Numbered from the stretch's first letter, positions 4,928 to 62,671 are shown. The stretch: 64,000 nucleotides of DNA from a bacterium (GCA_031082145.1 JAVHLP010000001.1:301831-365830), one strand, 5' to 3'. A program made the numbers and translations. The notes: a model not told the origin generated them from the sequence alone.

Positions 4928-4934
4928 TGGGTAC

Positions 4935-21287: not shown

Positions 21288-21361
21288 GTTGGTTGTTTCA
21301 CCCCAGGGCTGCCGCCGGAGAGACGGGGCGCGGGGCCCGGCCCCGCGCCCCCTGTGCTCTC

Positions 21362-23818: not shown

Positions 23819-24321
23819 ACTACCCGCACCTCCCAAATCTTGCGGTCGAACCTGTATATCGCCGATTTCGGTTGCCACTCAACCGGCTCCCGCGCACCCC
23901 CCTCCTCACGTTTCTGGATATACCGTCGCATGGACACCAACGGTACCCGGACCAGCCCAACAGTAGCCCGGGTTAAGCAGGGTAATTCCTCCAGTCCCCT
24001 TGAGTTCCCTCTTAAGGGTCCTGGTTGATGACCGCAAATTTCGACACCAGCCGGCAATAGACCTCCTCCGAGCGGATCTCTTTTTTGGGCGCCTCCCTCG
24101 CCGATCCTGTCCCGTGACATCGGTTGACCCACCGATACCCGCGTGCGGGGCACGATTGCCGAGTGGGTCAGGTGCATTCACCATTGGCATTGCGATCTCC
24201 TTCCCCGTTCCGCTCCGGCGCAGCATGAGGCACATATGGGTCCAACTCAAGAGATCCCCATGAAGAGTAGGGAACCGGCAGTGGAGGGCTGCCGCCCGGG
24301 GAAGCAGGGGAGTCGGGGACT

Positions 24322-38890: not shown

Positions 38891-39130
38891 CTCGGGCTCG
38901 AGCCGGTCTACCGCCGCATGAACGTCGCTGACCGGGCCGGCGGCGACTAGAAGGCAGCAGGGTTGACGCAAACGCAGGTGCAGCCGTTACGCAGTCCGGC
39001 CGGCCGGTCCCCGATCCGGCGGCAGGATACCTCCAGCAACGAACCGAAGGATCACAACAACCTGCAACCTGATAGCTCAGGCGCAGTCTCCATTCTGGCT
39101 TCGACCGCCACAGGAAGGGTGGGGTTCTTC

Positions 39131-40753
39131 TTGTTCTGCAACCAGTGTGAGCAAACGGCTCGCGGAATAGCGTGTACCACGGGTGGGGTCTGTGGAAAGA
39201 GCCCGGATGTGGCAGCGCTTCAAGATCTCCTGATTCACGGTGTGAAGGAGCTCTCCGCGCTCGCGGTGGCGGCGCGAGAACTCGGGGTCGTCGACGCCGA
39301 GGTCAACCGCTTTGTCTGCGAAGGCCTGTTCCTAACGGTCACCAACGTCAGCTTCGATCCCGAACGCCTGGGAGAGAGCGTCCACCGCGCCGCCGAACTC
39401 ACCGCTGCCCTCAAGGACAGATTGGCGCAAGCTGGGGGTAAGGCGCCGCCCTCGAAGTCAGCCGCTTTCAGGCCGGCCGGCGACCTGGCCGCCATGGTCG
39501 AACAGGGTCAGGCGTTGGGACCACCGGTGGCGTACGACCCTGGCTGCGACACCAGTTCGCTCCAGCTGACCACGCTATACGGCTACAAGGGTGTAGCCGC
39601 CTACGCTTACCATGCCTCCTTGTTGGGCGAGGAAGACGATGCGGTCTACGCCAGCATGCAGGGCGCTCTCGCTCAGTTGCTGAGCGAGGCCGATGAGCAG
39701 CGATGGTTGCAACTCCTGCTTGAGTGCGGCAAGGCCAACCTGCTGGCTATGGAGCTCCTGGACCGGGGTCACACCGGGCGCTATGGCCATCCAGTGCCAA
39801 CCCGGGTTCCTCTTGGCCCCAAGCAGGGCAAGTGTATCCTGGTATCCGGGCACGACCTGCTTGACCTGGAGGCCGTCCTGCAAGCTACCGCGGACAAGGG
39901 CGTTGACGTCTACACGCACGGCGAGATGCTCCCGGCCCACGGCTACCCCCGGCTGAAGGCCTACCCGCACTTCTACGGTCACTACGGAACCGCCTGGCAT
40001 AACCAGGCCCGGGAGTTCGCCGGGTTTCCCGGCGCCATCATCATGACCACCAACTGCATTCAGAAGCCCCGCCCGGCGTACGCCGGCAACATCTTCACCT
40101 CCGGCCCGGTAGGCTGGCCCGGCATCCCCCACCTGCACGGAGACTTCTCCCCGGCCGTCCAGAAGGCGCTGGCGATGCCCGGTTTCAGCGCCGCCGAGGA
40201 CCGGGGCAGTGTGACAGTGGGCTTCGGCCACCGTACGGTGCTGGCTCGTGCCGGCCAGGTTCTGGAGGCCATTCGTGCCGGCCGGCTTAAGCACATCTTC
40301 CTGGTGGGCGGCTGCGACGGGGCCCGGGAGTCCCGCTCGTACTACTCGAGCCTGGTCTCCAGGTTGCCGGGGGACGCCCTGGTGCTGACCCTGGCCTGCG
40401 GCAAGTATCGTTTCTTCGACCAGGACCTGGGCACCATTGGGGAGTTGCCCCGCCTCCTGGACATCGGCCAGTGCAACGACGCCTTCTCGGCCGTCCGGAT
40501 CGCCGGGGCTCTGGCCGAGGCCCTGGACTGCGGGATCAACGATCTGCCGCTCTCACTCGTCGTGTCCTGGTATGAGCAGAAGGCGGTGGGAGTGCTCCTG
40601 ACCCTCCTCTACCTCGGGGTCAGGAACATACACCTGGGCCCCACCTTGCCGGCATTTGTCTCACCAGGCGTCTTGCGCATGCTGGCCGATGAGTTCAACC
40701 TGCGGCCGATAACATCGCCCGAGCAAGATCTTGCCGCCATGATCGGCGGGTAG
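39131..40753 (+). CDS. hcp: Hydroxylamine reductase / hybrid-cluster protein.
   Basis: N-terminal (M)FCNQCEQTARG...C...GVCGK cysteine motif of Hcp, with full-length collinearity (~540 aa). The likely start is TTG at 39131 (GGAAGGGTGGGG 6 nt upstream). The ORF-track N-terminal 56 codons are probably leader. Confidence 0.85.
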   Translation: MFCNQCEQTARGIACTTGGVCGKSPDVAALQDLLIHGVKELSALAVAARELGVVDAEVNRFVCEGLFLTVTNVSFDPERLGESVHRAAELTAALKDRLAQAGGKAPPSKSAAFRPAGDLAAMVEQGQALGPPVAYDPGCDTSSLQLTTLYGYKGVAAYAYHASLLGEEDDAVYASMQGALAQLLSEADEQRWLQLLLECGKANLLAMELLDRGHTGRYGHPVPTRVPLGPKQGKCILVSGHDLLDLEAVLQATADKGVDVYTHGEMLPAHGYPRLKAYPHFYGHYGTAWHNQAREFAGFPGAIIMTTNCIQKPRPAYAGNIFTSGPVGWPGIPHLHGDFSPAVQKALAMPGFSAAEDRGSVTVGFGHRTVLARAGQVLEAIRAGRLKHIFLVGGCDGARESRSYYSSLVSRLPGDALVLTLACGKYRFFDQDLGTIGELPRLLDIGQCNDAFSAVRIAGALAEALDCGINDLPLSLVVSWYEQKAVGVLLTLLYLGVRNIHLGPTLPAFVSPGVLRMLADEFNLRPITSPEQDLAAMIGG

Positions 40754-48341: not shown

Positions 48342-49550
48342 ATGCCCGCCCGTGAGCGGCTCTATTCCGACCTGGCCCGCCGCCCGGCCAGTCCGGCCCT
48401 GGCCGAGCTGTTCAAGCTCACCGAACGGCCCGATGTCATCTCCTTCGCCGGGGGGTTTCCCTCGCCAGACATGTTCCTGCCGGAGGAAGCCCGGGCGATC
48501 ACCCGCCGGCTTCTGGCCGAGGAACCGGCGGCGGTCCTCGGCTACAGCCCCACTCCCGGGTTCTCCGAGTTCCGCGAGTTCTTGGCCGCTCGCCAGTCCC
48601 GCCAGGGCATGGCTGCCACCGGCGATGAAATCCTGGTGACCAGCGGGGCTCTCCAGGGACTGGACCTCCTCTGCCGGGTCTTCCTGGACCGCGGTGACCG
48701 GGTGGTGGTTGAGTCCCCCACTTACCTGGGCGCGCTGACCACCCTGGGCGCCTTCCGGGTGGAACTGACCCCGGTCCCCCTGGACGAGAACGGACTGGAC
48801 ACGGCCCGGCTGGCCGAACACCTGGAGGCGTGGCAGCGGTCGGGCCGGCTCCCCAAGCTCCTGTACACCGTGCCCACTTTCCAAAACCCCTCCGGGCTGA
48901 CCCTTAGCATCCAGCGGCGCCGGCACCTCCTGGAGTTGGCGGAGGCGTACGGCTTCACCATCCTGGAGGACAACGCTTATGGCGAGCTCCGCTTCGACGG
49001 CGACACCGTCCCAACGCTGAAGGCGCTGGACCGGCAGGGCGTGGTCGTCTACCTGGGCACGCTGTCCAAGGTGCTCTCGCCGGGGATCCGCATCGGCTGG
49101 ATCCACGCCGAACACGAGATCATCGAGCGAGCCATCCTGCTCAGGCAAGGCATGGACCAGTGCTCGAACTCGCTCGGGCAACTGCTCGCCCTGGAGTTCG
49201 GGCGACGGGGCCTGATCGAGCGGCAGATCCGCAAGACGGGGAGGCTGCTGGCGGCGAAAGCCGGACTCACCCTGGATCTCCTGGCCCGGGAGTTCCCCGC
49301 CGGGACGGCCTGGACCAAGCCCGAGGGAGGGTTCTACACCTGGGTGACCTTGCCCGGAGACATCGACACCGCCCTCGCCCTGACCCGCTGCATAGAGGAA
49401 GCGAGGGTAGCCTACGTGGCCGGCAGCGCCTTCTACGCCGGTGGGGGCGGCCACAACCAGTTCCGGCTCTGTTATTCCCAGCCGAGCTTGGAGGAGATCA
49501 GGCGGGGAGTGCCCCGGCTGGCCCAGACCCTGGCCGGACTACAGCGGTAG
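48342..49550 (+). CDS. PLP-dependent aminotransferase, 2-aminoadipate/LysN-KAT2-like subfamily (class I).
   Basis: ISFAGGFPSPDMFP N-terminal signature of the AadAT/LysN/MocR-type aminotransferase domain. No HTH. 402 aa. Confidence 0.75.
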   Translation: MPARERLYSDLARRPASPALAELFKLTERPDVISFAGGFPSPDMFLPEEARAITRRLLAEEPAAVLGYSPTPGFSEFREFLAARQSRQGMAATGDEILVTSGALQGLDLLCRVFLDRGDRVVVESPTYLGALTTLGAFRVELTPVPLDENGLDTARLAEHLEAWQRSGRLPKLLYTVPTFQNPSGLTLSIQRRRHLLELAEAYGFTILEDNAYGELRFDGDTVPTLKALDRQGVVVYLGTLSKVLSPGIRIGWIHAEHEIIERAILLRQGMDQCSNSLGQLLALEFGRRGLIERQIRKTGRLLAAKAGLTLDLLAREFPAGTAWTKPEGGFYTWVTLPGDIDTALALTRCIEEARVAYVAGSAFYAGGGGHNQFRLCYSQPSLEEIRRGVPRLAQTLAGLQR

Positions 49551-50507
49551 CCTGGTTCCCCGCCCTCGGGCCACCGCTTCCCGGTACACCAGGCGGGCCG
49601 CCGCCAGGTCCTCAATGGCCAGCCCCAGGTTGATGGAGATGATCCGCTGGCCGGGGCTGGTGCGGCCGGGGACCTTGCCGGCCACGATGTCGCCCAGATC
49701 GGCCCTGACGGGCGGGGTGTCGGTGAAGAAGCCCACCGTCCGGTAGTAGTCTAACTGGTCCCGGTCATCACTGGCCACGAGGTCGGCCGCCCGCAGGGCG
49801 TCGCCGGTCCAGTAGGAGTCAAAATCCAGGGCGATGCCGACAACTCCCTCGGCCAGCCACTCCGGCCGCAAGACGGGCGCCGGGTTATTCAGGATGGGTC
49901 CGGCCGTCACCACCACGTCCGCCCCCCGCACCGCCTCCTCCGGGTCCGGCGCCAGGGTTACCCGCACGCCATGCCGGTCTGTCATCTCCCGGGCGTAGCG
50001 GTCGGCCGCCTCCGGGTTCACATCATATCCCTGCACCCGGCGGAGACCGGGACACACCGCCAGGATGGCCTCCAGGTTGGTCCTCCCCTGAACGCCGAGG
50101 CCCAGGATGGCGGCAACCTCGGCGCCGGGCCGGCCCAGGTGGCGTACCGTCACGCCGGTGGCCGCTCCGGTACGGAAAGCGGTGATCCAGGACGCGTCCA
50201 TGACGGCCAGCGGGAGTCCGGTCCCGGGGTCGTTCAGCACCACCAGGCCGCTTATGTAGGGAAGCCCGCGGCGGGGATTGGCCGGATAGCCGGCCACCCA
50301 CTTCAGCCCGGCAACATCGATCCCGGAAAGGTAGGCAGGCATAGCATGCAGGAAGGAGTCCTGCCGGGGGTGGACGCCCGGCTTGGGCGGCATCTCCACT
50401 CCGCCCCGGCCCTTCTCCCGGAAGGCATCCTCGACGGCGTCGATGAGGTCACCCATGGCGACTCCCAGGCTCTCGACCTCCGCCCGGCTCAGGTACAGGA
50501 GTTCCAT
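49539..50507 (-). CDS. Ornithine cyclodeaminase / mu-crystallin family protein (cyclodeaminase or Pyr2C/Pip2C reductase type).
   Basis: Rossmann GLGVQG motif and family-typical N-terminal domain. ATG at 50507 overlaps the stop of the upstream FAD oxidase by 1 nt (TGATG). Confidence 0.8.
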   Translation of the reverse strand: MELLYLSRAEVESLGVAMGDLIDAVEDAFREKGRGGVEMPPKPGVHPRQDSFLHAMPAYLSGIDVAGLKWVAGYPANPRRGLPYISGLVVLNDPGTGLPLAVMDASWITAFRTGAATGVTVRHLGRPGAEVAAILGLGVQGRTNLEAILAVCPGLRRVQGYDVNPEAADRYAREMTDRHGVRVTLAPDPEEAVRGADVVVTAGPILNNPAPVLRPEWLAEGVVGIALDFDSYWTGDALRAADLVASDDRDQLDYYRTVGFFTDTPPVRADLGDIVAGKVPGRTSPGQRIISINLGLAIEDLAAARLVYREAVARGRGTRLPL

Positions 50508-51688
50508 CAGATAACCGTCTCCTCGTGGATCAGCTCGCCCCGGGCGAATCGCTCCAGGCAATAGGGGGTGGCGTCGACCGCCTCGTATCTCCCCTTGAGG
50601 ATCAGGTCGGCCAGGGCCCGGCCAGCCGCCGGAGCCTGCATCATCCCGTGCCCGGAGAACCCGCCGATGAGGTAGAACCCGGGCAGGTCGGGGTGCTCAC
50701 CGATGATCGCGTTGTGGTCGGGCGTGACCTCGTACAGTCCCGCCCAGAAGCGTTCCAGGCCCACCCGGTCCAGGAGCGGAAGGCGCCCGGCCAGCGCAGG
50801 CCAGATCACGTCCAGGAAGTAGGAGCGGTCGGGGGCGAAGTTGAACCCGGCCGGCTCCTCCGGGTCGGCCCGTCCGGTCAGGATGCGGCCGCCGGTCTCG
50901 GTCCGCACGAACACCCCGGAGGGGTCGACCACCATGGGGAGTTCGTAGTCCAACTCGGCGGGGATCTTGCAGGTAAACACGTGGCGGCGCACGGGCACGA
51001 CCGGCACTTCCACCCCGGCCATCGTCCCCACCTCGCCCGCCCAGGGTCCGGCGGCATTCACCACTATCGGGGCCAGCATCTGCTCGCCACCGGCGGTGAC
51101 CACTCCCGCCACCCGGCCCCGCTCCCGGGTGACACCCACTACGGCCTCCGCCCGGTAGTCGGCCCCCAGCGAACGGGCCTTCTTCTCATACCCGGCCATG
51201 ACCGCATAGGGGTCCAGGTAGCCATCACGGGGGCAGAAGGCGGCGGCGGCTATCCCCTCCAGGCTCAGATGGGGCACCCTGGCCTGGGCCTCCTCCGGGG
51301 TCAACAGCGACACCTCGACGCCCAGGGAGCGCTGCAACTCGTACCGGCGGCGGAGGGCCGCGAGGCCGTCCTCGCCGGCCAGGATCAGGTAGCCCTTTTG
51401 CCGGAAGTCGATCTCCGGCGCCTCGCCGTCAACCGCCATGAGTTCCCCGAAGCGCTCGAAGAAACCGACACTGTATCGGGAGAACAGCACATTGTCGCGA
51501 TAACCGAACTGTTGCCGGATTCCCCCTGCGCTGAGCCCGGTTGAGCTCCGCTCGTGGACGGGATCCCGTTCGAAGACGACCAGGCGGCCGTCAAGGCCAT
51601 CGCTTAGCAAGTTACAGGCGGCGGAAGAGCCCATAACCCCGCCGCCGATGATGATGACGTCCGCCGTGGCTGTCATGCCTATCCCCAC
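50507..51688 (-). CDS. FAD-dependent oxidoreductase, DAO / sarcosine-oxidase-beta / D-proline dehydrogenase-like.
   Basis: N-terminal DVIIIGGGVMGSSAA dinucleotide fold. ~390-aa monomeric amine-oxidase layout. Confidence 0.8.
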   Translation of the reverse strand: MGIGMTATADVIIIGGGVMGSSAACNLLSDGLDGRLVVFERDPVHERSSTGLSAGGIRQQFGYRDNVLFSRYSVGFFERFGELMAVDGEAPEIDFRQKGYLILAGEDGLAALRRRYELQRSLGVEVSLLTPEEAQARVPHLSLEGIAAAAFCPRDGYLDPYAVMAGYEKKARSLGADYRAEAVVGVTRERGRVAGVVTAGGEQMLAPIVVNAAGPWAGEVGTMAGVEVPVVPVRRHVFTCKIPAELDYELPMVVDPSGVFVRTETGGRILTGRADPEEPAGFNFAPDRSYFLDVIWPALAGRLPLLDRVGLERFWAGLYEVTPDHNAIIGEHPDLPGFYLIGGFSGHGMMQAPAAGRALADLILKGRYEAVDATPYCLERFARGELIHEETVI

Positions 51689-51718
51689 CCCCTGTATGCT
51701 GCTCGCGGTTCGCCGGGC

Positions 51719-52782
51719 CTAGACGGTGAAGATGTCGCGGGGCAGCCGGCTCAGACGGCGGCAACCGTCCGCGGTGACCGCCACGATCTCCTCCAGCCGG
51801 ACACCGAACCGGCCGGGGAGGTAGATCCCCGGCTCCACCGAGAAGACCATCCCCGTTTCCAGCAGTTGATCGTTGCTTCCGGTCAAGTAAGGGGGTTCGT
51901 GAACCGAGACGCCGATGCCGTGGCCGGTCCGATGGGTGAAGTACTCGCCGTAGCCGGCCCGTTCGATCACCCCCCGGGCGGCCCGGTCCACGGCAGCGCA
52001 GGCGGCGCCGGGGCCTACCGCCGCCATGCCGGCCTGCACCGCCGCCTCCACGACATCGTGTATCTCCCGGTACTCCGGCGAGGGCTCGCCCAGAAAGGCC
52101 ACGCGGGTTATGTCCGACGCGTACCCCTCGAGCCGGCAGCCGATGTCGATGACCAGCGGCTCGCCCACCGCCAGCCGGCGGCCTGACGTGTGGTGATGGG
52201 GGTAGGAGCTATTGGGTCCCGAGGCGACGATTGCGAACAGGGTCTCCGCCGCGCCGCCCTGCAGAAAGGCCCGGTTGACGGCCTCGGCGACCTCGCGCTC
52301 GCTAATCCCCGCCCGGCACGCCCCGACCGCCGCCTCCAGCGCTCGATCGGCCAGGGCGGCCGACGCCAGGAGCCGGGCGAGCTCGGCTTCCGACTTCCGC
52401 AGGCGCAAGGGGCCTACCAGTGCTGATGCCAGCTCGGGGCGGGCTCCCGGCCACAGCTCCATGAGCCGGAGCAGGGCATCCACCCGCATGGCGTCACCCA
52501 CGGCCAGCCGGCGGCAGGCCGGCGCCAGTCCGGCGGCCCGGGCTGCCGCGGCCAGGGCCGCCCCCGGCCCCTCGGCGTCGGTATAGGGGAAGATCGGGAG
52601 CCCGGTGTGGCACACGGCCTGATCGGCATTGAGCGAGGGCACCACGAAAGCCGCCCCCGCCCCGCCGGTCAGCAGGTAACAGGGGCGTTCATCGGCCACC
52701 GGGGAGAAGCCCAACAAGTAGAACAGATCGTCGCCGGGAGGAATGGCCAGGGCATCCACCCCGGCCCGGGCGATCTGCGCCA
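51719..52782 (-). CDS. M24-family Xaa-Pro dipeptidase / aminopeptidase P-like.
   Basis: Pita-bread C-domain with HGIGVSVHEPPYL and metal ligands D..D..H..E..E. The ORF-track frame continues upstream, but those ~320 codons have no peptidase similarity. The likely start is the ATG near 52782. Confidence 0.7.
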
Positions 52783-53042
52783 TGAGCTCTGCCAGTACGG
52801 CGTTTTCCGGTTCGCGACGCACAGCCGCCGCCTCCCCCGGGACCGGCCGGCCGGCCCCGGCGGAGGATTCGTCGCCCACCCGGCGCTCCCCTGCCCGGGT
52901 GGTGCCAGGACGGTGGTTGAGCCTCTGGCCACCGTCAGGTACGGACTGACCCCTATCGCACCGGCGGCCCGTCGGGCCCGGTGGAAGGAGCAGGGATCCC
53001 CGTTTCGACCCCCGAAGCCTGGTGAGAAGGGTGGTGCCGGAA

Positions 53043-53854
53043 TGGAACTGGCCTGGCACGGTGGTCCGTCGGTGAGCCTCAGGCTGGAAGGCCAGGTGGT
53101 GGTCGTCGATCCCTCGTTGTCCGGCCCGGGCGACTACGGAGACTGGTTCATGCCCAACCGCAACGCCCCCGACCCGGATACCTATCTCCGGGAGTTCCGA
53201 CCAGACGCGGTCCTCATCACCCATGGCCACTTCGACCATTTCGACCTGGAGACGGTCCGACTGCTGGCCCGGACGTGCCGCCCCCTGTTCGGGGGCAGCT
53301 CCGATGTAGTCGCCACCATTGGGCGGCATTTCGCCGAGTTGGAACCTCGGGCGCTGCCATTGGAACCCGGCCGGACCGAACCCCTCTCTCGCAGCCTCAC
53401 CGTCGGCGCCCTGGAGGGGATCCACTGGCTCACCGGAGAGGAGGGTCGACGGGTAGCCGCCCGCTTTGAGGGCCGTCCGGATCGCTGGGGAGTCATGCCC
53501 TGCGGCGGTCCCATGCTCTCCTTTGTCGTGCGGGGAGGGGAGCACCAGATCTACTTCAGCGGCGACACCGAGCTCGAGGGCATTCCCTCGCTGACAGTCA
53601 CGGTAGCCGTCATCAACGTCGGTGGCCCGGTGCGCGATCCCGTCACCAAGCAGCCTGTCCAGTGCATCGCCAGTCCCGGCGACGTGGCCCGGGCCTTGAG
53701 TGAGAGGCTGGCAGCCCGCGTGGTCGTCCCCATCCACTACGACCACCCGGTGTTCCTGGAGCGAGTGGACCCGGGAGACATCGAGGCCCTGCTGCCGGAA
53801 GGCCCGCCGGTGCTCCGCCTTCCGTTCAACCGGTGGGTCAAGGTGGAGCTCTAG
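53043..53854 (+). CDS. MBL-fold metallo-hydrolase.
   Basis: ITHGHFDHFD metal-binding motif. ATG at 53043. The ORF-track upstream extension is antisense to the M24 gene. Confidence 0.7.
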
Positions 53855-53922
53855 CGGGGCAGTCCGCCAGTAGACCGGACGCCGGCGAGGCGCCGGCGTC
53901 CGGGTGGGAGGAGAGGGCGTTT

Positions 53923-55176
53923 TCAGTCCTTAACCTGGAAATCCCGTCCGAGCATGCCGCTCATGTTGAGCACGCCGTCTCGGGTGACCACGACGTCGTC
54001 TTCGATGTTGAAGAAGGGGAGAGTGACTCCGGGGAGCTCAATCGACATCTCGTAGGTGAACATCATGCCCGGCTCAAACACCACCTTGCCCTCCTTGTCC
54101 TGCACCAGCGGCTGGGCGGCGGATGGCACCAGATTGGGCTGCTGGTAAGGCTCGAGCCCGATGCCGTGACCAATGAAGGGAACCCCCCCGATCGCTTGCA
54201 GCACATAGCCCTGGCCGGAGACATAGTCATCAGCGGCGCTCACGACGTCGTCCAGGCACACGCCCGGCTTGATCAGCCGGTCCATCAGCTCGCTCACACC
54301 TCGCCGGCAGGCGTACAAGCGCTCTTCCTCCGGCGTCGGCCGGCGGCCGAGGAATATCCCCCGGTTGACGTCGGACTGGTATCGCTTATACCTGGCTCCG
54401 AGGTCCAAGTGCACCCAGCCCTTGCCGATGGGCCGGTCAACCGCGTCGCAACTCACCAGTTTCATGCCTTCACCCTCGGCCATCACCTGGGCATGGCTGA
54501 TAGCGTCGGCGCCCTCTTCCAGCATGAAGCGCTTGGCCAGCGTGGCGACTTCCAGTTCGTTCATCCCGATCTCGATCAGATCGTAGATCCTCTGCATCGC
54601 CCGGCAGGAGGCAGTCACCGCCACTTTCATGCGTTCTATCTCGAGTTCAGACTTGACCGCCATGATCCGCCACAGGACGCCGGTAGCATCCACCACCGAG
54701 GCCCCCAGATCGTCCTCCAGCCGCTGCTTCAGGGCCATGAACTTGAGGGGGTTGATACCGGCGACCAGGCCCTTTCCCCACTCAGTGCCTATCCTGGCTC
54801 CCCGGCCGATGCCGTAGTCTCTCAGGACGTTCACCAGTTCGAGTTCATCGTCGTAGTACTCCAGCGATGCGTTGGCGGTGGTGTGCAGTCCGACTTCGTC
54901 GGTGTCAAAAGGGCCGAAGCGCTGGCAGTAGACGTCCGCCTCGGGGGTGATGATCACCGTGGACTGAGGGGCCAGCGCGACCGGGGCGTCCATACCCACG
55001 AAGACGAAGCGGGTGCCCGAGAAGTAGAAGACGTTGACGTTCCTGGCCACCAGCAGGGCATCCAATCCCTGTTCGTTCATGATCCGGCGCGCCCGCTCGA
55101 TCCTGTGCCGATGCTCGCTGACGGGGTGTTCCGGATAGGCTGGATCGCAGGTTCGCCTGACGCTTCTCCTCGCCAT
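53923..55176 (-). CDS. M24-family peptidase (creatinase/prolidase type, with creatinase-N domain).
   Basis: N-terminal creatinase/prolidase-N domain plus C-terminal pita-bread (HGIGLEPYQQP). ATG overlaps the stop of the upstream creatininase-family gene by 1 nt. Confidence 0.8.
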   Translation of the reverse strand: MARRSVRRTCDPAYPEHPVSEHRHRIERARRIMNEQGLDALLVARNVNVFYFSGTRFVFVGMDAPVALAPQSTVIITPEADVYCQRFGPFDTDEVGLHTTANASLEYYDDELELVNVLRDYGIGRGARIGTEWGKGLVAGINPLKFMALKQRLEDDLGASVVDATGVLWRIMAVKSELEIERMKVAVTASCRAMQRIYDLIEIGMNELEVATLAKRFMLEEGADAISHAQVMAEGEGMKLVSCDAVDRPIGKGWVHLDLGARYKRYQSDVNRGIFLGRRPTPEEERLYACRRGVSELMDRLIKPGVCLDDVVSAADDYVSGQGYVLQAIGGVPFIGHGIGLEPYQQPNLVPSAAQPLVQDKEGKVVFEPGMMFTYEMSIELPGVTLPFFNIEDDVVVTRDGVLNMSGMLGRDFQVKD

Positions 55177-55997
55177 CAGATCCTCTCCTTCCGGTCGCCG
55201 CGGTCAGACGCCGCGGGCTTGTTCTCAAACCAGGCGATCAGGCTCCGAACCTCATCGGCCACCAGGTCAACCATGCGCTCGAAGACCTCGGCGCCAAGTT
55301 TGGCCGTAGCCCCCCGGGGGCGGCCAAGGACGCCACTGGCGGACAGGTGGGCCACCGACCCGTGGAAGAGCGGCACGCCGGCATCCTTGAGGGAGGCGGA
55401 ACCTAACCCGATGTCCTCGTCCACCGCGGCGCTCATGTCCACCAGATGGGGAGCAAGGTGAAGCATCCAGGCGGTCTCGATCAGGTTGGCATGGAGACCT
55501 TCCTCGCGGCCGAAGAAAGGCCGGTCACCGGTGGCGTACTGCATGAGGTCGTAGATGGGAACTACGTGGACCCGAGGCAGCCGGCGCTGGATGGCGTGGC
55601 AGGCCAGCCGGATGGTGGGGCTGTTCCCGCCGTGAGAGCATAGCACCGCGATGTTGGTGAAGCCGTGGGCCGCCAGGCTCTCGCAGTAGTCGCCGATGAC
55701 GGCCGCCAGCGTGTCGTGCCCGACGGTGAGGGTGCCGGGAAAGGCCAGGTGGTGTGGTGAGAAACCCGGACGGACGGTCGGCGCGACCAGGGCGTCGCCC
55801 AGCCGACGGGCCACCCCGCAGGCAAGGGCCGTCCCCAGGAGCTCGTCGGTACAGATGGGCAGATGAGGGCCGTGCTGCTCGGTGGAACCAACGGCGACCA
55901 CGGCCGTCCGCCATCCGGCGAGGATCCTGTCTCTTACCTTGGGCCAGGCCATGAACTCGAGCCGGATGTCGCGGTCCAGGTTGTCGAGCACCTGCAT
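55176..55997 (-). CDS. Creatininase-family amidohydrolase (creatinine amidohydrolase / ArfB / MftE superfamily).
   Basis: VVAVGSTEQHGPHLP hallmark. The start is either the ATG at 55997 (MQVLDN) or the upstream ATG at 56039, which overlaps ecfT. Confidence 0.75.
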   Translation of the reverse strand: MQVLDNLDRDIRLEFMAWPKVRDRILAGWRTAVVAVGSTEQHGPHLPICTDELLGTALACGVARRLGDALVAPTVRPGFSPHHLAFPGTLTVGHDTLAAVIGDYCESLAAHGFTNIAVLCSHGGNSPTIRLACHAIQRRLPRVHVVPIYDLMQYATGDRPFFGREEGLHANLIETAWMLHLAPHLVDMSAAVDEDIGLGSASLKDAGVPLFHGSVAHLSASGVLGRPRGATAKLGAEVFERMVDLVADEVRSLIAWFENKPAASDRGDRKERI

Positions 55998-56010
55998 CCC
56001 CTCCAGGTGG

Positions 56011-56859
56011 CTATCCCTCGAAGTGCCAGTGGATGACACCGAGCTGGACCAGGATGACGAGGGCGGCCAGGGTCCCCAAGGTGCTGGCCAGCACCAGCCA
56101 GTCCAGGGGCCGCATGGGCAGTTCTCGGAGATGGGTCCGGCGCCGGTTGGCCAGGTCCAGGCCCCGGGACTGGAAGACTATGGACATGAGGTCCACCGTC
56201 TTCAGCAAGATAAGCATCAGTGGGGTCAGCAGGGACCCGATCTGCCGGATGCGTTCCCGGAACCCGCCCCGGTCGAGTTCGAGCCCTCTCGCCCGCTGGG
56301 CGTTGTAGGTGATCTTCAGGCTGTTGGTGACCATCGGAATGCAGCGCACAGAAGTGGCCGTTATCATCGCTACCGCGTAGGGAACCCCGATACGGTTCAC
56401 GCTGAAGGTGAGATCGGACAGGGGTGTCGACTTCAGCAGCATGATCACGCTGACCAGAGAACTCAACAAGAAGAAGGTCTTGGAGATGGCGAAGTGCACA
56501 CTAACGCTGGTGACGGTGAACCAGGGCGGGATGTGGAAGTAGACGTGACCCATCTGGGTACCCCGGCCGAAGAAGAGGTTCATCAGGCCGAACATGAGCA
56601 CGATGGCGATCACGTAGGGCTTCCGGGCCGCCAGTTCCTTCCCGATGTTGACCCCGCCGGTCATGCACAGGAGATACACCGCCACGAACAGCATGAACCC
56701 CCAGTACCAGGATGTAGACGGCGAGGCTGCGTAGATCCCGAAACCAAGCACGGCAACGACCAGCCCCAGCTTCGTCAACGGGTTCCAGCCATGGAGGTAG
56801 CCCTTTCCCGGCTCGTAGCTGACCAGCGTCTCAGCCATATCGAGGATGTCAAACAACAC
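56011..56859 (-). CDS. ecfT: ECF transporter transmembrane (T) component.
   Basis: CbiQ/EcfT-type TM protein with the conserved ARG...R coupling helix region (AQRARGLELDRG). Start overlaps the ATPase gene stop. Confidence 0.8.
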   Translation of the reverse strand: MLFDILDMAETLVSYEPGKGYLHGWNPLTKLGLVVAVLGFGIYAASPSTSWYWGFMLFVAVYLLCMTGGVNIGKELAARKPYVIAIVLMFGLMNLFFGRGTQMGHVYFHIPPWFTVTSVSVHFAISKTFFLLSSLVSVIMLLKSTPLSDLTFSVNRIGVPYAVAMITATSVRCIPMVTNSLKITYNAQRARGLELDRGGFRERIRQIGSLLTPLMLILLKTVDLMSIVFQSRGLDLANRRRTHLRELPMRPLDWLVLASTLGTLAALVILVQLGVIHWHFEG

Positions 56860-58564
56860 GTCCGATCACCCCCTTGGAGACCAGGAATGGCATGAGTTCC
56901 TCCACTGACCGCACGAACCAGGGAACGCCGGTGTCACTGAGCAGCGAGGTGATCTGGAGGACCTCCGGCAGGTCCAGGCTCGATGCCTGGAGCCGCCCGG
57001 CATCCCCGAAGGCCTCAGCCGTCTGACCCTGCCACACGATCCGCCCCCGGTCCAAGAGGACCACCCGGTTCGCGTGCTTCAGGGCCAGTTCCATGTCGTG
57101 CGTGATCATGATCACGGTCTTGCCCGTGGCGTTGAGGCGGGTGGTGATGTCCATGAGCATCTCCAGGGTGGATTCATCCTGGCCGGTAGTGGGCTCATCC
57201 AGGATCAGCACGTCGGGGTCCATGACCAGGATCGAAGCCAGCGCCACCCGCTGCTTCTGGCCGATGCTGAGCCGCTCGGGGTCACGTTCCTCCATCCCTT
57301 CCAGGCCGACCAGGTCGAGGATCCGGGCGACGGCGTGCTTCACCCGTTCCTCCTCCCAACCCAGGTTGCGGGGGCCGAAACTGACCTCCTTGAAGACGGT
57401 GTCGTTGAAGATCTGGTGGTTGGGATTCTGGAAAATGAAGCCCACCTTGCGAGCCATCTGGGCAACCGTGAAGTTGGCCGATTGCTGGCCGTCGATCAGC
57501 ACCGTCCCCCCGGTGGGCCTCAGGATGCCGATGATGTGCAGCACCATCGTGGACTTGCCGGCGCCGTTCATGCCCAGCAACGCTACGAAGTCACCCCGAC
57601 CGACCGCCAGGTCCACCGAGTCCAGACCCTTGTACCCGTTCTTGAACTGGTGAGTGACGCCGTGGAAGGCGACGATCACCTCGTCCTCGACGGCCGGCGA
57701 TGGGGCTGGCGGTTCCGGAGTGCCGAGACGGGGGAGGACTGCTCCCAGGTCCCGGGGAGACAACGGCAGCATCCCGAACTCAACGCCATGTTCCTCCAAG
57801 AAGAGCGCCACCCGGACGGTCGCCGGGACCTTGATACCACACCGCTCGAGGAGATCCAGGCGGCGCAGGACCTCCCGTGGGGTCCCGGTGGCGATCGCCC
57901 GTCCCTCGTCAATCAGCACCACCCGGTCGACCAGGTCAACCACGGGGCCGATGTCTTTCTCCACCAGCAGCACTGTATGGTTCCCCTTGTTGCAGATGGA
58001 CCGGATGGTCTCGAGCACTGCCCGGGAACTGGCCGGATCGAGGTTCCCCGTCGGCTCGTCGAAGATGAGGACCTCCGGCTCCCTTGCCAGCACGGACGCA
58101 ATGGCCACCCGCTGCTTCTGACCTCCGCTCAGACTGGCGGGAGATCGTTCCTCAAGGTCCCGGAGGCCAACCGTGTCCAGGGCCCAGTCCACCCGCCTGC
58201 GCATCTCGTCCCTGGGCATACCCAAGTTCTCAAGGGACATGGCGATCTCGTCTTCGACCGACATCGCGAACAACTGGATCTCGGGGTCCTGGAAAACGAA
58301 ACCGACCTTGCGGGCCATCACCGACGGGTTACTCTCCAAGACGTTGGTGCCGCACACTGTCACCGCGCCCTCGGCCTTTCCCCCGGTGAGATGTGGCACG
58401 ACCCCGTTCAGGGCGAGCGCGAGTGAGCTCTTACCACACCCGGAGCTGCCCAGGACCAACATGATCTCCCCTGCCCGGACGTCCAGGGTGATGTCCCGCA
58501 AGACCCAGTCGGCGCTATCCTCGTACCGGAATGAGAAGTCCCGCACGGCGATGACCGCATCCAT
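56849..58564 (-). CDS. ECF transporter ATPase with two fused nucleotide-binding domains (EcfA-EcfA', YkoD-like).
   Basis: Two complete ABC units: GSSGCGKSS / LSGGQKQRVAIA / IFDEPT and GMNGAGKST / LSIGQKQRVALA / ILDEPT. 571 aa. Confidence 0.85.
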   Translation of the reverse strand: MDAVIAVRDFSFRYEDSADWVLRDITLDVRAGEIMLVLGSSGCGKSSLALALNGVVPHLTGGKAEGAVTVCGTNVLESNPSVMARKVGFVFQDPEIQLFAMSVEDEIAMSLENLGMPRDEMRRRVDWALDTVGLRDLEERSPASLSGGQKQRVAIASVLAREPEVLIFDEPTGNLDPASSRAVLETIRSICNKGNHTVLLVEKDIGPVVDLVDRVVLIDEGRAIATGTPREVLRRLDLLERCGIKVPATVRVALFLEEHGVEFGMLPLSPRDLGAVLPRLGTPEPPAPSPAVEDEVIVAFHGVTHQFKNGYKGLDSVDLAVGRGDFVALLGMNGAGKSTMVLHIIGILRPTGGTVLIDGQQSANFTVAQMARKVGFIFQNPNHQIFNDTVFKEVSFGPRNLGWEEERVKHAVARILDLVGLEGMEERDPERLSIGQKQRVALASILVMDPDVLILDEPTTGQDESTLEMLMDITTRLNATGKTVIMITHDMELALKHANRVVLLDRGRIVWQGQTAEAFGDAGRLQASSLDLPEVLQITSLLSDTGVPWFVRSVEELMPFLVSKGVIGRVV

Positions 58565-58647
58565 CCTGGCATGACTCCTTTGCAGTTCAGGGGCAAGGCC
58601 CCTGCCTTCCTCCCCCCGAATGAGGAGGCAGGGGCTGCCCTAGGGTT

Positions 58648-59199
58648 CTACTCGGCCCAAGGATGCCGCAGGAAGCCGCCTGGCACCAAGCCGTGCACTC
58701 TGACGGCGGGGATTCGCTTGCGCAAGGCGGGAATCACGATGATGCCTTCAGTTATGAGCGCGGCGACAACTAGCTGGATCGCCATGGTCCCCATGCCCAG
58801 GTAGAAGATGGGCATGGGCAGCCCGAGCCAAGTAACAAGCATCCAGAATAGGTACGGAAGGGTGACAATGTGGGTCAAAGCAGACGAGAACAAGGGCCGC
58901 AATCCTACCTTGCTGCAGAGTAATCCTGTGCCAATACCCAGCAGCGCACCGTAGACAATGGACCCTGGGTGTCCCCAGAGGACGATGGTGTATAGAGCAC
59001 CGATGGCCCCAGCTATCCCGCCCAGCAGCCACCCGCTGGTGGCCCCGACCAGCACGGCCGGGAGCACGTACAGGTTAATGTGGATATTGGGGCCGATCGG
59101 AATGGCGAATAGGGTGAGGATATCCCCCAAGGCCCCGATCACGGCGGCATAGATCGCCGCCTTGATGGTAATCCCGGCAGCAGCTTTCAAACTAGACAC
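58648..59199 (-). CDS. Probable ECF transporter substrate-specific (S) component.
   Basis: 183-aa, 5-6-TM small membrane protein directly upstream of the ECF A and T genes. GC content is noticeably lower than the flanks. Confidence 0.6.
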   Translation of the reverse strand: MSSLKAAAGITIKAAIYAAVIGALGDILTLFAIPIGPNIHINLYVLPAVLVGATSGWLLGGIAGAIGALYTIVLWGHPGSIVYGALLGIGTGLLCSKVGLRPLFSSALTHIVTLPYLFWMLVTWLGLPMPIFYLGMGTMAIQLVVAALITEGIIVIPALRKRIPAVRVHGLVPGGFLRHPWAE

Positions 59200-59228
59200 C
59201 TCCCGCTCTCACGTAGTAGGGTAAGATC

Positions 59229-60212
59229 TCAGCCGTCCGCGAAGATCCCGTCACGCACCACCTCCTTGCCATCAACCGACAGGGTCGCTCCCACCAGGAT
59301 GGTGTCCACGTGAACGCGACAGGCCGTCCTGCCCTGCAGTTGGGGGATGTTGTTGCCGCCGAAGGCGACGTTGATCCCACCGTCGTAACTCTCCCAATTC
59401 CCGATGTCGGCTCCCCAGATATCGGCCCGGGGGTCCATGCCGAACCCCGTGTGGGCTATCACCCGGGCGTTGGGGTCACCGCTCTCCTCGAAGAAACGAG
59501 CGATGATCTTCGCCTCGCGGCCCTCGCCGGTGGTGCCGACGACTCGCCCGCCGGCCAACTCAAACACCACCGGTGTCTCGACGTGGAAGTTCAGGCGTGG
59601 TCCCAGGTATACAGGGCCGTTGACGATCACCCGGCCCTCGGCTTTGGTTTCCGGTGGGGCGAAAGCGGCCACCACCACGCCGAGGCTATCCCAGTCGCCA
59701 GCATGGGTCACGCATCCGTCCTGGAAGTGGACCGGGCGGTCGTCCCGCTCCACCCTCAGGTCGGTGCCGAGTTGGGACGTGATGCGGATGCGCTGTCCCT
59801 TGAGCCGGGCGGCTAGTCTGGCCGAGCGCTCGCTGATCTCCGGCGTGGGCGGCCGGTGGATGACCGAGGATTCGTCGGCCAGGACCTGGAGAACCCGGGC
59901 TCCCCGCCCCAGGATCTTGTTGGTCGCCTCGGTATACAGCCATGGCTGAGTGGCCAGGTCGAAGACCATGTCGGCCTCCATCATGGCGGCAACCGCAGCG
60001 GCCGGGGGGTCGACCAGCGGGACCCTCTCCGCCTTGCTCAAGACCAGCGTCGCCTGGGCTCCCATGGAGACGGCAGCCGCGTAGAAGGCTTCCACCAGAA
60101 CCTCGTTCTTGGTGGTGTCGGAGAACACCACCACCGCCTCGCCGGCCTTGACCCGGCAGGCCTGGCAGGTCTGCCGGGCGGCCTCCAAGAGCTCGATGTA
60201 CTGCGCCCGCAT
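59229..60212 (-). CDS. M29-fold (aminopeptidase T / NicX-like superfamily) protein.
   Basis: C-terminal HTGFGMD...GGNNIPQLQGRTACRVHVDTIL block aligns with the metal-binding region of the other two M29-like paralogs in this window. 327 aa. Confidence 0.55.
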   Translation of the reverse strand: MRAQYIELLEAARQTCQACRVKAGEAVVVFSDTTKNEVLVEAFYAAAVSMGAQATLVLSKAERVPLVDPPAAAVAAMMEADMVFDLATQPWLYTEATNKILGRGARVLQVLADESSVIHRPPTPEISERSARLAARLKGQRIRITSQLGTDLRVERDDRPVHFQDGCVTHAGDWDSLGVVVAAFAPPETKAEGRVIVNGPVYLGPRLNFHVETPVVFELAGGRVVGTTGEGREAKIIARFFEESGDPNARVIAHTGFGMDPRADIWGADIGNWESYDGGINVAFGGNNIPQLQGRTACRVHVDTILVGATLSVDGKEVVRDGIFADG

Positions 60213-60216
60213 GGTG

Positions 60217-61518
60217 CTATACCTCCCCGCAGCGGCGATCTGGTCCCGCCGGTTCGGCCACGCCGTACTTGGCCAGCATCCTGAGAACCCGTGCCAGTCT
60301 GTCCCGCTCCAGCCCCGAGGCCAGAGCCAGGTCGGAGGAAGCCGCCGGGCCAGCTTGCAGGGCCCGGTATACCCGGACCGCCAGCCGGGAGGAGACGCCG
60401 GTTCCCACCCGGGTCAGGTGGGTTCGCCCCATGGCGTCCGTCCAGGCCAGCCTCAGGTGGTCGTCCTCGGCGGTCACGGCGGCCCCCGGCCGCAGGGTGA
60501 TTGGCCCGGGTAGTGGATCCGGGGTGTACGTGGCGTGATCCTCAAAGCGCTTCGGCCCCAGGCAGAGCCAACCCTCCTCTACCAGGGCCTCGCCGTCCAG
60601 GTAGATGGTGGGTTTCTTGAACAGCGCATCCAGGTGGACGTTGCTGTAGACCGTCCCGCCTATGCACTGGCCGTTTCCGATACCGACGTGAGCCGTCCCC
60701 TCCAGTTTCTCGTCAAGGAGCATGTTCCCGATGATCTCCGCCTTGGGGTTTAGCCCAATGGCCAATTCGGCCAGGTTGGTCGCGTTCTCGTCCCTCTCCT
60801 CCAGGATCCGGGCCAGCGCATCGGCCTGCGGGCCTCCCTCAACCCCTACGACCCGCCCTCTCTTGACCGTGAGAACCACGTCTCCCGTGAGCAAGCCGAT
60901 GCCGCCGGACAGGGAAGCGTCGATCACCAGGGAGCCTTCGGCCTGCCCCTCGATGGGAGCGGTGAGGGCCTCCCCGGCCGGGAGGTTGCCGGCAACCCCC
61001 GGCTCGGTCACCTCCCCGGTATCGGCTCCGGCCGGGCGTCGCCAACCCCCGAGCGGGACATGTAGCTCGGTACCCTTGGCCGTCTTGACCAGCGCCTGCT
61101 CCGCGAAGTTGAGCAGTTCGGCCGCGCGTACCGTTCTGGCTGCCATCTCGGCCCCTCCGAAGATGGCCGGCGAGAGAAACAAGCGGTCGTTCAGGTTAGG
61201 CATGCTCAGGATCCGGGCACCCTCTCGTCTCGCCTCCAGGGTGGCCAGACCGTGAGTGAGAGTCCGGGCGGTGACGGCCACGACTAGGCTGGCCCGGCGC
61301 ATCGCGCCACCGACGACCGATGGCGGGTCCGCCCCGTCGGTCCTCGTCTCCGGCATCACCATCAACGTGGCCGGGTGACCCCGGTTGGCAAACGCCTGCG
61401 CAAAAGCGTCTCCGAACGGCCGGCTGACCGGATCGGTGACGACCAGTACAACATCGTCTCGGCGAAGGCCCAGAGCTTCTTCGATGATGGTCTCGGCCAC
61501 TCTCACGTAGCGGCGCAT
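60217..61518 (-). CDS. M29-family aminopeptidase-like protein with a C-terminal ~90-aa extension.
   Basis: GNLPAGEALTAPIEG, LAIGLNPKAEIIG and GTAHVGIGNG...NVHLDALF blocks parallel the M29 gene at 6315..7358. The C-terminal tail contains helix-turn-helix-like RLARVLRMLAKYGV. Confidence 0.65.
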   Translation of the reverse strand: MRRYVRVAETIIEEALGLRRDDVVLVVTDPVSRPFGDAFAQAFANRGHPATLMVMPETRTDGADPPSVVGGAMRRASLVVAVTARTLTHGLATLEARREGARILSMPNLNDRLFLSPAIFGGAEMAARTVRAAELLNFAEQALVKTAKGTELHVPLGGWRRPAGADTGEVTEPGVAGNLPAGEALTAPIEGQAEGSLVIDASLSGGIGLLTGDVVLTVKRGRVVGVEGGPQADALARILEERDENATNLAELAIGLNPKAEIIGNMLLDEKLEGTAHVGIGNGQCIGGTVYSNVHLDALFKKPTIYLDGEALVEEGWLCLGPKRFEDHATYTPDPLPGPITLRPGAAVTAEDDHLRLAWTDAMGRTHLTRVGTGVSSRLAVRVYRALQAGPAASSDLALASGLERDRLARVLRMLAKYGVAEPAGPDRRCGEV

Positions 61519-61543
61519 GTCAGCCTCCCCTGTAAACCGTGGG

Positions 61544-62479
61544 TCAGTGCTCGCCAGGTTGCCCTCCCAACCGCTGGCGCAACAGACGCACGGAGCTCTC
61601 CTGAATCAAGAAGCTCACCACAATCGTGGAGACGCCCAGTTGTTCGGGAGCGAGCTTGGCATGACTGGAGGGAATGGTGACCAGCACGTCGATCTCCCCA
61701 GTGGCCGCCGCCCGCAGTATCTCCTCTGCCTCGCAGTCCTCTCCCAGGCGGTAGGGCGCGCCGTGGAACATCGCCACCAGGCCGCTCAGAACCTTGTTGG
61801 TGCGGGAGTTGGGAGACACGACGGCAATCCGGGCGCCGGCCGGGATGCGTGCGATCTGGGCCAGGGCGTCATCGGAAGGGGCATGATGCAGGGGTACTAC
61901 CTCCCCGGGCAGTAGCCGCTCCGCCTCCCCGATGTGGTAATAGGTGGTACAGACCAACGCCAGTCCCTCCAGCAGTTCGGGGCTGCTCTGGAGCTGCTCG
62001 AAGCTGAGCGGCACCACGGGAATCTGTAGCTGCATCTCTAGGGCCCTGGCCAGGCTCCTGGCGTCCTCGACGTTGCACTCCACGAGGCCTACCCGGCTAC
62101 GGCGGCCCTCGAACGCCTCGTCTACCACCTGGATGGCCATCTTGCGGAAAGCGGACCAGGAGACGCCCCCCATTCGGGCCTCCCAGCACACCGCCTGTAG
62201 CCTCTCGCGGAGGCGGCCGCTGTCTGGCCCCCGCCTCTCCCCGTCACCCACCGCCTGGATCACGAAGAAGCCTTGCCGGGGCCGCGCGGCCACCACTCCT
62301 TGTTTGCTGAGCTGCAGGTAAGCCGAGTGGACAAGGTTATGGCTAACCCCCAGTTCACCGGCAAGGACACGGACGCTCGGAAGCCGGGAACCCTGAGCGT
62401 ATCGTCCCTGGCGAATACGCTCCTCGACCATCCCCTTGATGTCGCGCGAAGAAGGGACGAATCCGGTGCCACTAAACAT
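61544..62479 (-). CDS. GntR-family transcriptional regulator with a large C-terminal effector domain.
   Basis: N-terminal wHTH LPSVRVLAGELGVSHNLVHSAYLQLSKQGVV. ~230-aa C-terminal domain. First gene of the minus-strand M29/ECF/creatininase/M24 array. Confidence 0.75.
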   Translation of the reverse strand: MFSGTGFVPSSRDIKGMVEERIRQGRYAQGSRLPSVRVLAGELGVSHNLVHSAYLQLSKQGVVAARPRQGFFVIQAVGDGERRGPDSGRLRERLQAVCWEARMGGVSWSAFRKMAIQVVDEAFEGRRSRVGLVECNVEDARSLARALEMQLQIPVVPLSFEQLQSSPELLEGLALVCTTYYHIGEAERLLPGEVVPLHHAPSDDALAQIARIPAGARIAVVSPNSRTNKVLSGLVAMFHGAPYRLGEDCEAEEILRAAATGEIDVLVTIPSSHAKLAPEQLGVSTIVVSFLIQESSVRLLRQRLGGQPGEH

Positions 62480-62671
62480 ACCGGCACGCCCTCCGACTGT
62501 CTGCTGTATTCAGACACTAGACAGGCCTTGGGCGCTTAAGTTCGCCAATGCCAAGCAGACTCCTCCTGGCAGGGAAGAAGTCGGAATATTGACGCGCACT
62601 GGAGGTGGTTGGGCGTTGTCACGCGGGAGAGCAGGGGCGGGTCCGGTCGAGGCGACCCGCCCCCGGGGGAA

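Follow-up and report, generated by a model that had tools for sequence, protein, structure and literature searches.

A conserved, GntR-headed operon joins an energy-coupling factor importer with a new S component to metal-dependent amide-bond hydrolases

Why should an energy-coupling factor (ECF) transporter, a type classically known for the low-capacity import of vitamins or metals, be encoded in one run with a set of amidohydrolases? The question is raised by a gene array on the minus strand of a 64,000-nucleotide stretch of bacterial DNA (GCA_031082145.1 JAVHLP010000001.1:301831-365830; 'the window' below), between positions 53923 and 62479. Gene calling finds eight co-directional open reading frames (ORFs) in the order GntR-family regulator, M29-type metallohydrolase, NicX-like M29-fold protein, ECF S (substrate-capture) component, fused A-A' ATPase, T (transmembrane coupling) component, creatininase-family amidohydrolase and M24a, an M24 metallohydrolase with a Creatinase_N domain. 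An earlier note on this DNA had counted nine genes and three M29-fold paralogs. The array it described is real, but both counts were too high: there are eight genes and two paralogs (60217–61518 and 59229–60212), the third lying ∼ 50 kb away at 6315–7358. The array is well beyond chance; the gene set and its order recur in many unrelated contigs. It is a real, conserved operon in which an ECF importer with a new S component is joined to several metal-dependent amide-bond hydrolases; all of the enzyme families involved are amide or peptide hydrolases.

Gene neighbourhoods were fetched around homologs of the NicX-like protein, the S component and M24a, and a scan for related loci with a narrower alignment yielded only three genome and four metagenome loci. 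The S-AA'-T module occurs in about 13 distinct lineages, nearly always beside the same hydrolase families, with S identity down to 42%. Its partners are one to three NicX-like genes, a creatininase-family or M20 gene, and M24 genes, with up to nine hydrolase genes per locus. Conservation of the array as a unit, a point that the earlier note had raised, is borne out by these neighbourhoods. In architecture A, a GntR regulator with an unusual C-terminal domain is combined with one, two or three NicX/M29-like genes, the S-AA'-T module, a creatininase-family gene and, frequently, M24 genes; it is found in the window, in metagenome-assembled genomes (MAGs) of Bacillota, in one MAG of the Halanaerobiales, on a TARA contig and in L015/L017 (related loci are given as L numbers). 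Architecture B (L004, L010 and L012) consists of a GntR-FCD regulator, an M24 enzyme of a second recurrent clade that is absent from the window (M24c), a NicX-like gene, S-AA'-T and a dipeptidase-like M20. The cultured bacterium Microbacterium ulmi (JABEMB010000013.1, about 61.4–69.4 kb) carries GntR-FCD, S (51% identical to that of the window), AA', T, M20, M24a and another M24; its unit is without a NicX-like gene. The creatininase-family gene is sometimes replaced by an M20 dipeptidase, the M20 proteins being closest to dipeptidase models, and in L015 and L017 a RidA gene is translationally coupled to a NicX-like gene. The enzymes also occur without an ECF transporter. In L022, M24a, M24c, NicX-like, M20, M19 and caprolactamase-like HyuA/B genes (the last resembling ATP-dependent lactamases) stand behind a TonB-dependent receptor and a major facilitator superfamily (MFS) gene; in L020 the enzymes lie near an ATP-binding cassette (ABC) permease, an M19 gene, a homolog of cog1228-type Xaa-Pro dipeptidase and an AstE/AspA-like gene beside M24c. 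The searchable literature yielded no account of the cluster.

The ECF transporter itself is of a known kind; what is new here is the S family and the unusual catabolic wiring. The fused ATPase (56849–58564, 571 amino acids) contains two ABC_tran domains, and its halves match TIGR04520 (466 bits, cut-off 315) and TIGR04521 (457 bits, cut-off 330). The T component (56011–56859, 282 amino acids) matches PF02361 CbiQ over residues 22–243 (83.8 bits, cut-off 25; E 1.8e-23). The S component (58648–59199, 183 amino acids) matched no Pfam or NCBIfam family at E ≤ 0.01, and reached only 16 bits with the generic ECF_trnsprt model (E 0.012, cut-off 30.7). Its AlphaFold (AF2) model has a predicted local distance difference score of 89.2, and the top 27 Foldseek matches of this model in the PDB are all ECF S components (TM-scores of 0.36–0.60, mostly 0.5–0.6; 13–20% identity), among them FolT, RibU, HmpT, ThiT, PanT and BioY. 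A word-indexed search of 5.8 billion proteins found homologs in 31 clusters, all unnamed. When 1.84 billion representatives were searched exhaustively with a profile, 62 matched at E ≤ 1e-3 and only four at E ≤ 1e-30; the nearest outgroups are borderline, and match only generic S-component models. By its predicted fold and its context, the protein is an ECF S component of a new, very small family, and on these profile comparisons it belongs to no named vitamin S family. Its invariant polar, aromatic and arginine residues (Y17, N38, N42, Y44, Y70, W75, R101 and Q142) would fit a small polar ligand.

A search of positions 47–64 kb of the window against Rfam at E ≤ 1 gave no riboswitch or THI element, only one sub-threshold small RNA match (RsmW, E 0.93), and no riboswitch was found at gathering score in seven related loci. 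The domain calls and the Rfam search therefore uphold the earlier description of a ykoEDC-like S / fused A-A' / T layout without a riboswitch. A well-defined vitamin family for the S component, together with a riboswitch, had been named as grounds for abandoning the idea; the protein has no curated family match and the array no riboswitch. The array resembles the group I ECF systems YkoEDC (for the hydroxymethylpyrimidine/thiamine precursor), BioMNY and CbiMNQO in that S is encoded in one operon with its own A, A' and T, in its ECF ATPase and CbiQ-type T signatures above cut-off, and in the fold of S; with ykoEDC it also shares a fused A-A' ATPase followed by T. It differs from all three in having an S component of no named family and a GntR protein regulator in place of a THI-box or other riboswitch, regulation being by protein and not by RNA, and in being set within a multi-hydrolase gene set of presumed catabolic role instead of a vitamin pathway.

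The regulator (61544–62479, 311 amino acids) has an N-terminal GntR winged helix-turn-helix (wHTH) domain (PF00392, 57 bits, E 1.4e-15), followed by a C-terminal domain of ∼ 190 residues that domain searches place in none of the FCD, UTRA or MocR/aminotransferase classes. A profile built from five orthologs matches YtrA-type GntR structures over residues 2–119 only; the C-terminal ∼ 190 residues gave no sequence match in the PDB. In precomputed annotation the orthologs match PF27163 YmtS_Ross, mostly as weak or faint matches that are unmarked only in L015/L016.

A palindrome, which the earlier note had pointed out, is present at 62494–62521, 15–42 nt upstream of the ATG of the regulator. On the minus strand (62521–62494) it reads cTGTCTAgTGTCTGaatacagCAGACAgt, that is TGTCTA-n-TGTCTG-n7-CAGACA. 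The core pattern TGTC-N11-GACA has two matches in the window where 0.73 are expected. The second, at 59303–59321 inside the NicX-like gene, is probably a chance occurrence, since at least two matches arose in 19 of 100 shuffles. The site near the regulator is backed by a phylogenetic footprint. In the AT-rich Halanaerobiales MAG a TGTCTAnTGTCTG-N7-CAGACA architecture (L001, 6647–6673) lies just ahead of the point where the orthologous regulator probably starts: the site, gTGTCTAtTGTCTGcagacacCAGACAaa, directly precedes a GGGAGG site and an ATG that suits the alignment better than the called start. Related palindromes occupy the same place in L008 (TGTCCTA-N5-TAGGACA) and in L003/L006 (TGACCTA-N5-TAGGACA), and L015/L016 carry three direct TAGGACAGT repeats. 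The regulators of the window and the Halanaerobiales are only ∼ 31% identical. Because the site survives this divergence and the change from about 65–68% GC to AT-rich DNA, there is good evidence that the palindrome is an autoregulatory operator.

The genes of the array are closely packed. The intergenic gaps are 25, 4, 29 and 83 nt, the A-A' and T genes overlap by 11 nt, and the stop of the creatininase-family gene overlaps the start of M24a by 1 nt (TGATG at 55176); the overlapping or coupled minus-strand run and the 1-nt overlap had both been noticed earlier and are seen again here. Read from the DNA, the likely true start of the S gene is TTG 59190, preceded by a GGGAGG site, and that of the creatininase-family gene is ATG 55997. 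A consensus promoter and terminator scan returned nothing useful in this high-GC DNA. It missed a perfect, GC-rich hairpin without a T-run, GGACGCCGGCG-cctc-GCCGGCGTCC, which was read from the sequence at 53877–53901 between the convergent M24a and metallo-β-lactamase (MBL)-fold genes and is the probable end of the operon. The spacer between the S and A-A' genes (58565–58647, minus strand) folds into a GC-rich hairpin with a minimum free energy of −39.1 kcal/mol, but its z-score against shuffles is only −1.0 and it is not supported as a significant structure. A spacer between the S and ATPase genes recurs in all relatives at lengths of 25–512 nt (for example L015 6879–7391, and L012 9770–10001 and 10585–10812); the long L015 spacer matched no Rfam family.

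What, then, do the enzymes do? The creatininase-family protein (55176–56039, 287 amino acids) gives a full-length match to the Pfam Creatininase family (PF02633, 213 bits, E 7e-63) and falls short of every NCBIfam equivalog cut-off, those for MftE (140 bits against 172), creatininase (TIGR04448, 114 against 235) and IolN among them. Aligned with Pseudomonas putida creatininase (1j2t and mutants), it keeps the Glu/His/Asp/His metal ligands and the equivalent of the catalytic His178. The residues of the creatinine pocket are substituted: HYE(120–122) reads HGG, so that Tyr121 and Glu122 are both Gly, Trp154 is Tyr and Trp174 is Arg/Glu. The protein has its Pfam match, metal ligands and catalytic His in common with creatinine amidohydrolase, MftE, ArfB and IolN, but differs from creatininase, MftE and IolN in its sub-threshold scores and from creatininase in its pocket. 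To judge by these residues it is not a creatininase. There are no mycofactocin, riboflavin or inositol genes near the creatininase-family gene.

M24a (53923–55176, 417 amino acids) is the most conserved enzyme of the set. It combines a Creatinase_N domain (PF01321, 45 bits) with a pita-bread M24 domain (PF00557, 105 bits), as do M24B prolidases (PepQ), creatinase and DoeA. All five metal ligands (D, D, H, E, E) align with those of prolidase 1pv9, a feature that M24a shares with the prolidases; creatinase is without the M24 metal ligands. Its solved relatives are prolidases and aminopeptidase P, with creatinase accounting for none of 31 PDB matches. M24a differs from PepQ and DoeA in scoring far below both cut-offs, and in that the HE motif after GHGIG reads YQ. 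It forms a separate clade, 48–72% identical within itself and ∼ 25% identical to other M24 proteins. Between phyla its members are 52–72% identical, and they are found in both operon architectures and in the clusters without an ECF transporter. Another M24 gene of the window (M24b, 51719–52843) was considered as a partner enzyme and rejected, being only 27–33% identical to the M24c clade.

The NicX-like protein (59229–60212, 327 amino acids) adjoins the ECF genes in nearly all relatives. Its family profile matches P. putida NicX (PDB 7cn3) at E 4.5e-68, and fold and sequence homology to NicX are present at 22% identity. In NicX, a 2,5-dihydroxypyridine (DHP) 5,6-dioxygenase, the Fe(II) ligands His265, Ser302, His318 and Asp320 are each essential (S302A is inactive), and His105, Glu177 and His189 bind the substrate (PMC7910607). 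The ECF-linked clade keeps the His265/His318/Asp320 triad invariant, and Leu104 is also shared with NicX/Hpo. Unlike NicX, however, the clade has Ala or Gln for Ser302 throughout, and His105, Glu177 and His189 are replaced by Tyr, Gln and Ser respectively. It also has an extra invariant Glu (E274) that is common to the M29-type paralog, and it differs further from NicX in occurring in probable anaerobes and beside an ECF importer. The distant homologs P0020 and P0021 keep six of the seven NicX positions (the four Fe(II) ligands, His105 and His189), with Ser for Glu177.

The M29-type paralog (60217–61518, 433 amino acids) is 28% identical to the NicX-like protein (E 2e-16). It passes the Pfam M29 model (PF02073 Peptidase_M29, 59.6 bits against a cut-off of 27, E 3.3e-16) with partial coverage, over profile positions 191–349 of 406. 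We take the dinuclear M29 ligand set to be Glu, Glu, His, His and Asp. The 433-residue protein has Glu at the position of NicX His265 together with the shared Glu, His and HxD motifs; this E...E...H...HxD pattern can be made out when the protein is aligned with NicX and with the paralogs. In the M29 score and in Glu, His and HxD at what appear to be equivalent positions it resembles the aminopeptidases AmpS, AmpT and PepS, from which it differs in the partial profile coverage and in a winged-helix-like C-terminal extension of ∼ 100 residues (window 60220–60561). The extension, with weak matches to TrmB and to an O-methyltransferase dimerization/wHTH domain (E 0.002–0.05), is conserved in the L001 ortholog (7624–8883). 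The 327-residue paralog departs from the M29 aminopeptidases in that His and Asn replace two ligands. To our knowledge the fold has so far been known for aminopeptidases and one dioxygenase, and in the NicX-like clade it may serve a function other than that of an oxygenase.

The conserved context fits the general idea of the earlier note, namely that a small cyclic amide or a peptide-like compound is taken up and hydrolysed. Of that interpretation the GntR-headed ECF unit, its conservation and the operator hold up, and the echo of creatinine catabolism does not. We propose that the array is a substrate-inducible catabolic operon that imports a small amide-bonded nitrogen compound and hydrolyses it stepwise. 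This is a mechanism at the level of class, in which the direction of transport, the catabolic role, the sequence of the enzymatic steps and the class of substrate are all inferred, and we regard the case for it as evenly balanced. A GntR-type repressor would bind TGTCTG-N7-CAGACA, and a small molecule on its C-terminal domain would release it. A dedicated, group-I style ECF transporter (new S, fused A-A' and T) would then import the organic nitrogen compound, and cytoplasmic metallo-amidohydrolases would dismantle it. The NicX-like/M29-fold and creatininase-family enzymes may carry out unusual ring- or amide-opening steps, with M24a (as M24c, M20 and M19 in relatives) cleaving the resulting dipeptide-like product. 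Nutrient catabolism is preferred over cofactor salvage because the hydrolase set is also paired with TonB/MFS genes (L022) or an ABC permease (L020). As for the class of substrate, a lactam or a peptide-like compound with an imino acid (proline type) is the most likely, such as a cyclic dipeptide or a di- or tripeptide of an unusual kind. This class is suggested by three features of the loci: openers of lactams or unusual amides recur (creatininase family, caprolactamase-like and NicX-fold), as do three independent prolidase-type or dipeptidase folds (M24, the cog1228 amidohydrolase and M19/M20), and the enzyme set as a whole moves between types of transporter. The creatininase-family and caprolactamase-like partners, which are interchangeable, are both lactam or amide openers.

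A more specific version of this proposal, that the operon serves catabolism of a cyclic dipeptide (a 2,5-diketopiperazine such as cyclo(X-Pro)) or a similar lactam and would be the first such bacterial genetic system, is attractive in its detail and, in our estimate, unlikely. Here S would capture the ring and the NicX-fold protein, repurposed as an O2-independent lactam hydrolase, would open it, with creatininase-family or caprolactamase-like enzymes assisting it or standing in for it; the prolidase-type M24, M20 and M19 enzymes would then split the linear X-Pro dipeptide. The enzymes with which microbes degrade cyclic dipeptides have yet to be identified (PMC3852281), and if cyclic dipeptides are the substrate the question becomes directly testable.

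Several considerations weigh against the catabolic proposal. The substrate class is assigned by association with broad hydrolase families, and no component appears to have a characterized ortholog. The classical part of ECF transporters as low-capacity importers of vitamins and metals sits uneasily with bulk catabolism. The NicX-like protein, with its 2-His-1-Asp site kept, could be an oxygenase. M24 and NicX-like genes are not universal: there are Halanaerobiales loci without M24, and M. ulmi is without a NicX-like gene. In L022 and L024, uptake through a TonB-dependent receptor would be better suited to a ligand larger or scarcer than a dipeptide, and the multiple paralogs could equally serve several related substrates. 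If the proposal is true, the role of ECF transporters extends from vitamins and trace metals to bulk nutrient catabolism, served by an enzyme toolkit (M24a, M24c, NicX-like, M20 or creatininase-like) that is portable across phyla. The cultured host M. ulmi, with its ECF, M20 and M24a genes, makes experiments feasible.

One rival explanation is aerobic catabolism of a heterocycle, in which the ECF transporter would import a hydroxypyridine-like compound (pyridone or dihydroxypyridine type). The NicX-like protein would use O2 and Fe(II) to cleave the ring, yielding an N-formyl amide, a creatininase-family or M20 deformylase (compare NicD/Nfo) would act next, and M24 would serve as the amidase. 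The NicX/Hpo pathway does continue from ring cleavage with a deformylase (PMC3831237). RidA could in addition handle enamine products. ArfB of the creatininase family and YlmB of the M20 family are formamide hydrolases, which would explain the interchange of creatininase-family and M20 genes after the T gene. The replacement of Ser302, the essential Fe ligand whose mutation to Ala inactivates NicX (PMC7910607), counts against this explanation, as do the changes at the three DHP-binding positions and the gain of the invariant Glu common to the M29-type paralog. The ECF+M20+M24a unit of M. ulmi is without a NicX-like gene, and no hydroxylase genes accompany the cluster. The Halanaerobiales, represented by a MAG among the hosts, are an order of strict anaerobes, and the genome of the window encodes a hybrid-cluster protein. 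We consider the heterocycle explanation fairly improbable.

Salvage of a vitamin or cofactor, with the ECF transporter taking up an amide-conjugated or degraded cofactor (such as a conjugate of folate, pantothenate or biotin, or a pyrimidine or pyridine carrying a formyl group) from which the hydrolases free a usable moiety, would agree with the typical vitamin cargo of ECF importers and the ykoEDC-like S / fused A-A' / T layout. The M20 and creatininase families, moreover, include known salvage deformylases. This explanation is made distinctly unlikely by the lack of a riboswitch (in 47–64 kb of the window and in seven related loci), by an S component outside all named vitamin S families, by as many as nine hydrolase genes in one locus and by the company that these enzymes keep elsewhere, with TonB/MFS or ABC transporters. 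The cluster has no linked biosynthetic genes, and its regulators are of GntR/FCD types, which are typical of catabolic operons.

It is very unlikely that the operon lets halophilic and marine anaerobes degrade a compatible solute, either a cyclic amidine of the ectoine type or an N-acyl diamino acid, with an M24 enzyme as the ring hydrolase and a second amidohydrolase as the deacylase. The M24 enzymes do match DoeA weakly, there is the AstE/AspA-like gene beside M24c in L020, M24a has OCD-family genes close by both in the window and in L024, and the cluster is carried by Halanaerobiales and TARA ocean contigs. However, the DoeA scores are 42–99 bits against cut-offs of 575–613, generally below the scores with prolidase models and never clearly higher. 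None of DoeB, DoeC and DoeD has an ortholog among the genes conserved in the cluster, this explanation gives no part to the NicX-like and creatininase-family genes, and many of the contigs that carry the cluster belong to lineages that are not saline, Microbacterium for one.

The use of creatinine or creatine, the echo heard in the earlier note (creatininase to creatine, M24 as creatinase to sarcosine and urea, and oxidation of sarcosine by an FAD enzyme), draws on the adjacent Pfam Creatininase and Creatinase_N+M24 genes with their 1-nt overlap, a DAO-family enzyme with a sub-threshold soxB-family match and a hydantoinase A/B pair in L022, yet has the least chance of all, given the 114 bits against 235 and the lost pocket residues (Tyr121, Glu122, Trp154 and Trp174), the five intact ligands and prolidase relatives of M24a, a DAO gene absent from every related locus tested, an L022 pair closest to caprolactamase, and NicX-like, M29, M20 and M19 genes that have no role in such a pathway.

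The nearby FAD enzyme does exist, 2.2 kb downstream of the array. It belongs to an amino-acid module at 48342–53854 that comprises the MBL-fold hydrolase (plus strand, 53042–53854), the PepQ-like M24 (51719–52843), the DAO-family FAD oxidoreductase (50507–51688), an OCD/mu-crystallin gene (49539–50561) and a MocR-type aminotransferase without the helix-turn-helix domain (48342–49550). The DAO, OCD, aminotransferase and MBL genes travelled with the array in none of the first 11 related loci tested; in later loci an OCD gene (34% identical) was found directly upstream of M24a in L024, and a weak aminotransferase match in L015. These four genes were rejected as members of the array, as they are not conserved with it apart from the single OCD recurrence.

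Some of the related loci deserve a remark. In L025 a fused A-A' gene (3476–5218, 53% identical) stands beside M20, M24, NicX-like, creatininase-like and M24a genes, with no S or T found by tblastn. In the Bacillota MAG A05DMB27 the M24a ortholog is split into ORFs of 229 and 187 amino acids (L003 11967–13195 and L006 15930–17152), which may reflect a frameshift or an assembly error. Cyanophycin synthetase and cyanophycinase-type S51 peptidase genes are divergently adjacent to the cluster in the Halanaerobiales MAG (L001, 2923–6415); they were dropped as a lead, being confined to that lineage.

Elsewhere in the window, the third M29-type gene (6315–7358, minus strand) is the only other paralog. 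Its product is 38% identical to the 433-residue protein and has no Pfam match. It overlaps an M20 peptidase gene (5039–6358), which is followed by a pyridoxal phosphate-dependent PALP enzyme (3244–4629), so that the cluster at 3244–7358 (minus strand) holds another pairing of M29-like and M20 genes. An Opp/Dpp-type ABC peptide transporter is encoded at 16894–23878 (two ATPase genes, two permeases and an 838-residue SBP_bac_5 protein); the window thus has a classical route of peptide uptake apart from the array. A hybrid-cluster (prismane) protein (38963–40753), an AddAB helicase-nuclease (8626–15515) and a repeat-rich protein of 924 residues with a signal peptide (45460–48234), which by eye looks like an SLH/S-layer protein, together with a GC content of about 68%, suggest that the host of the window is a high-GC, Bacillota-like and probably anaerobic bacterium known from a MAG; the window also encodes PepF.

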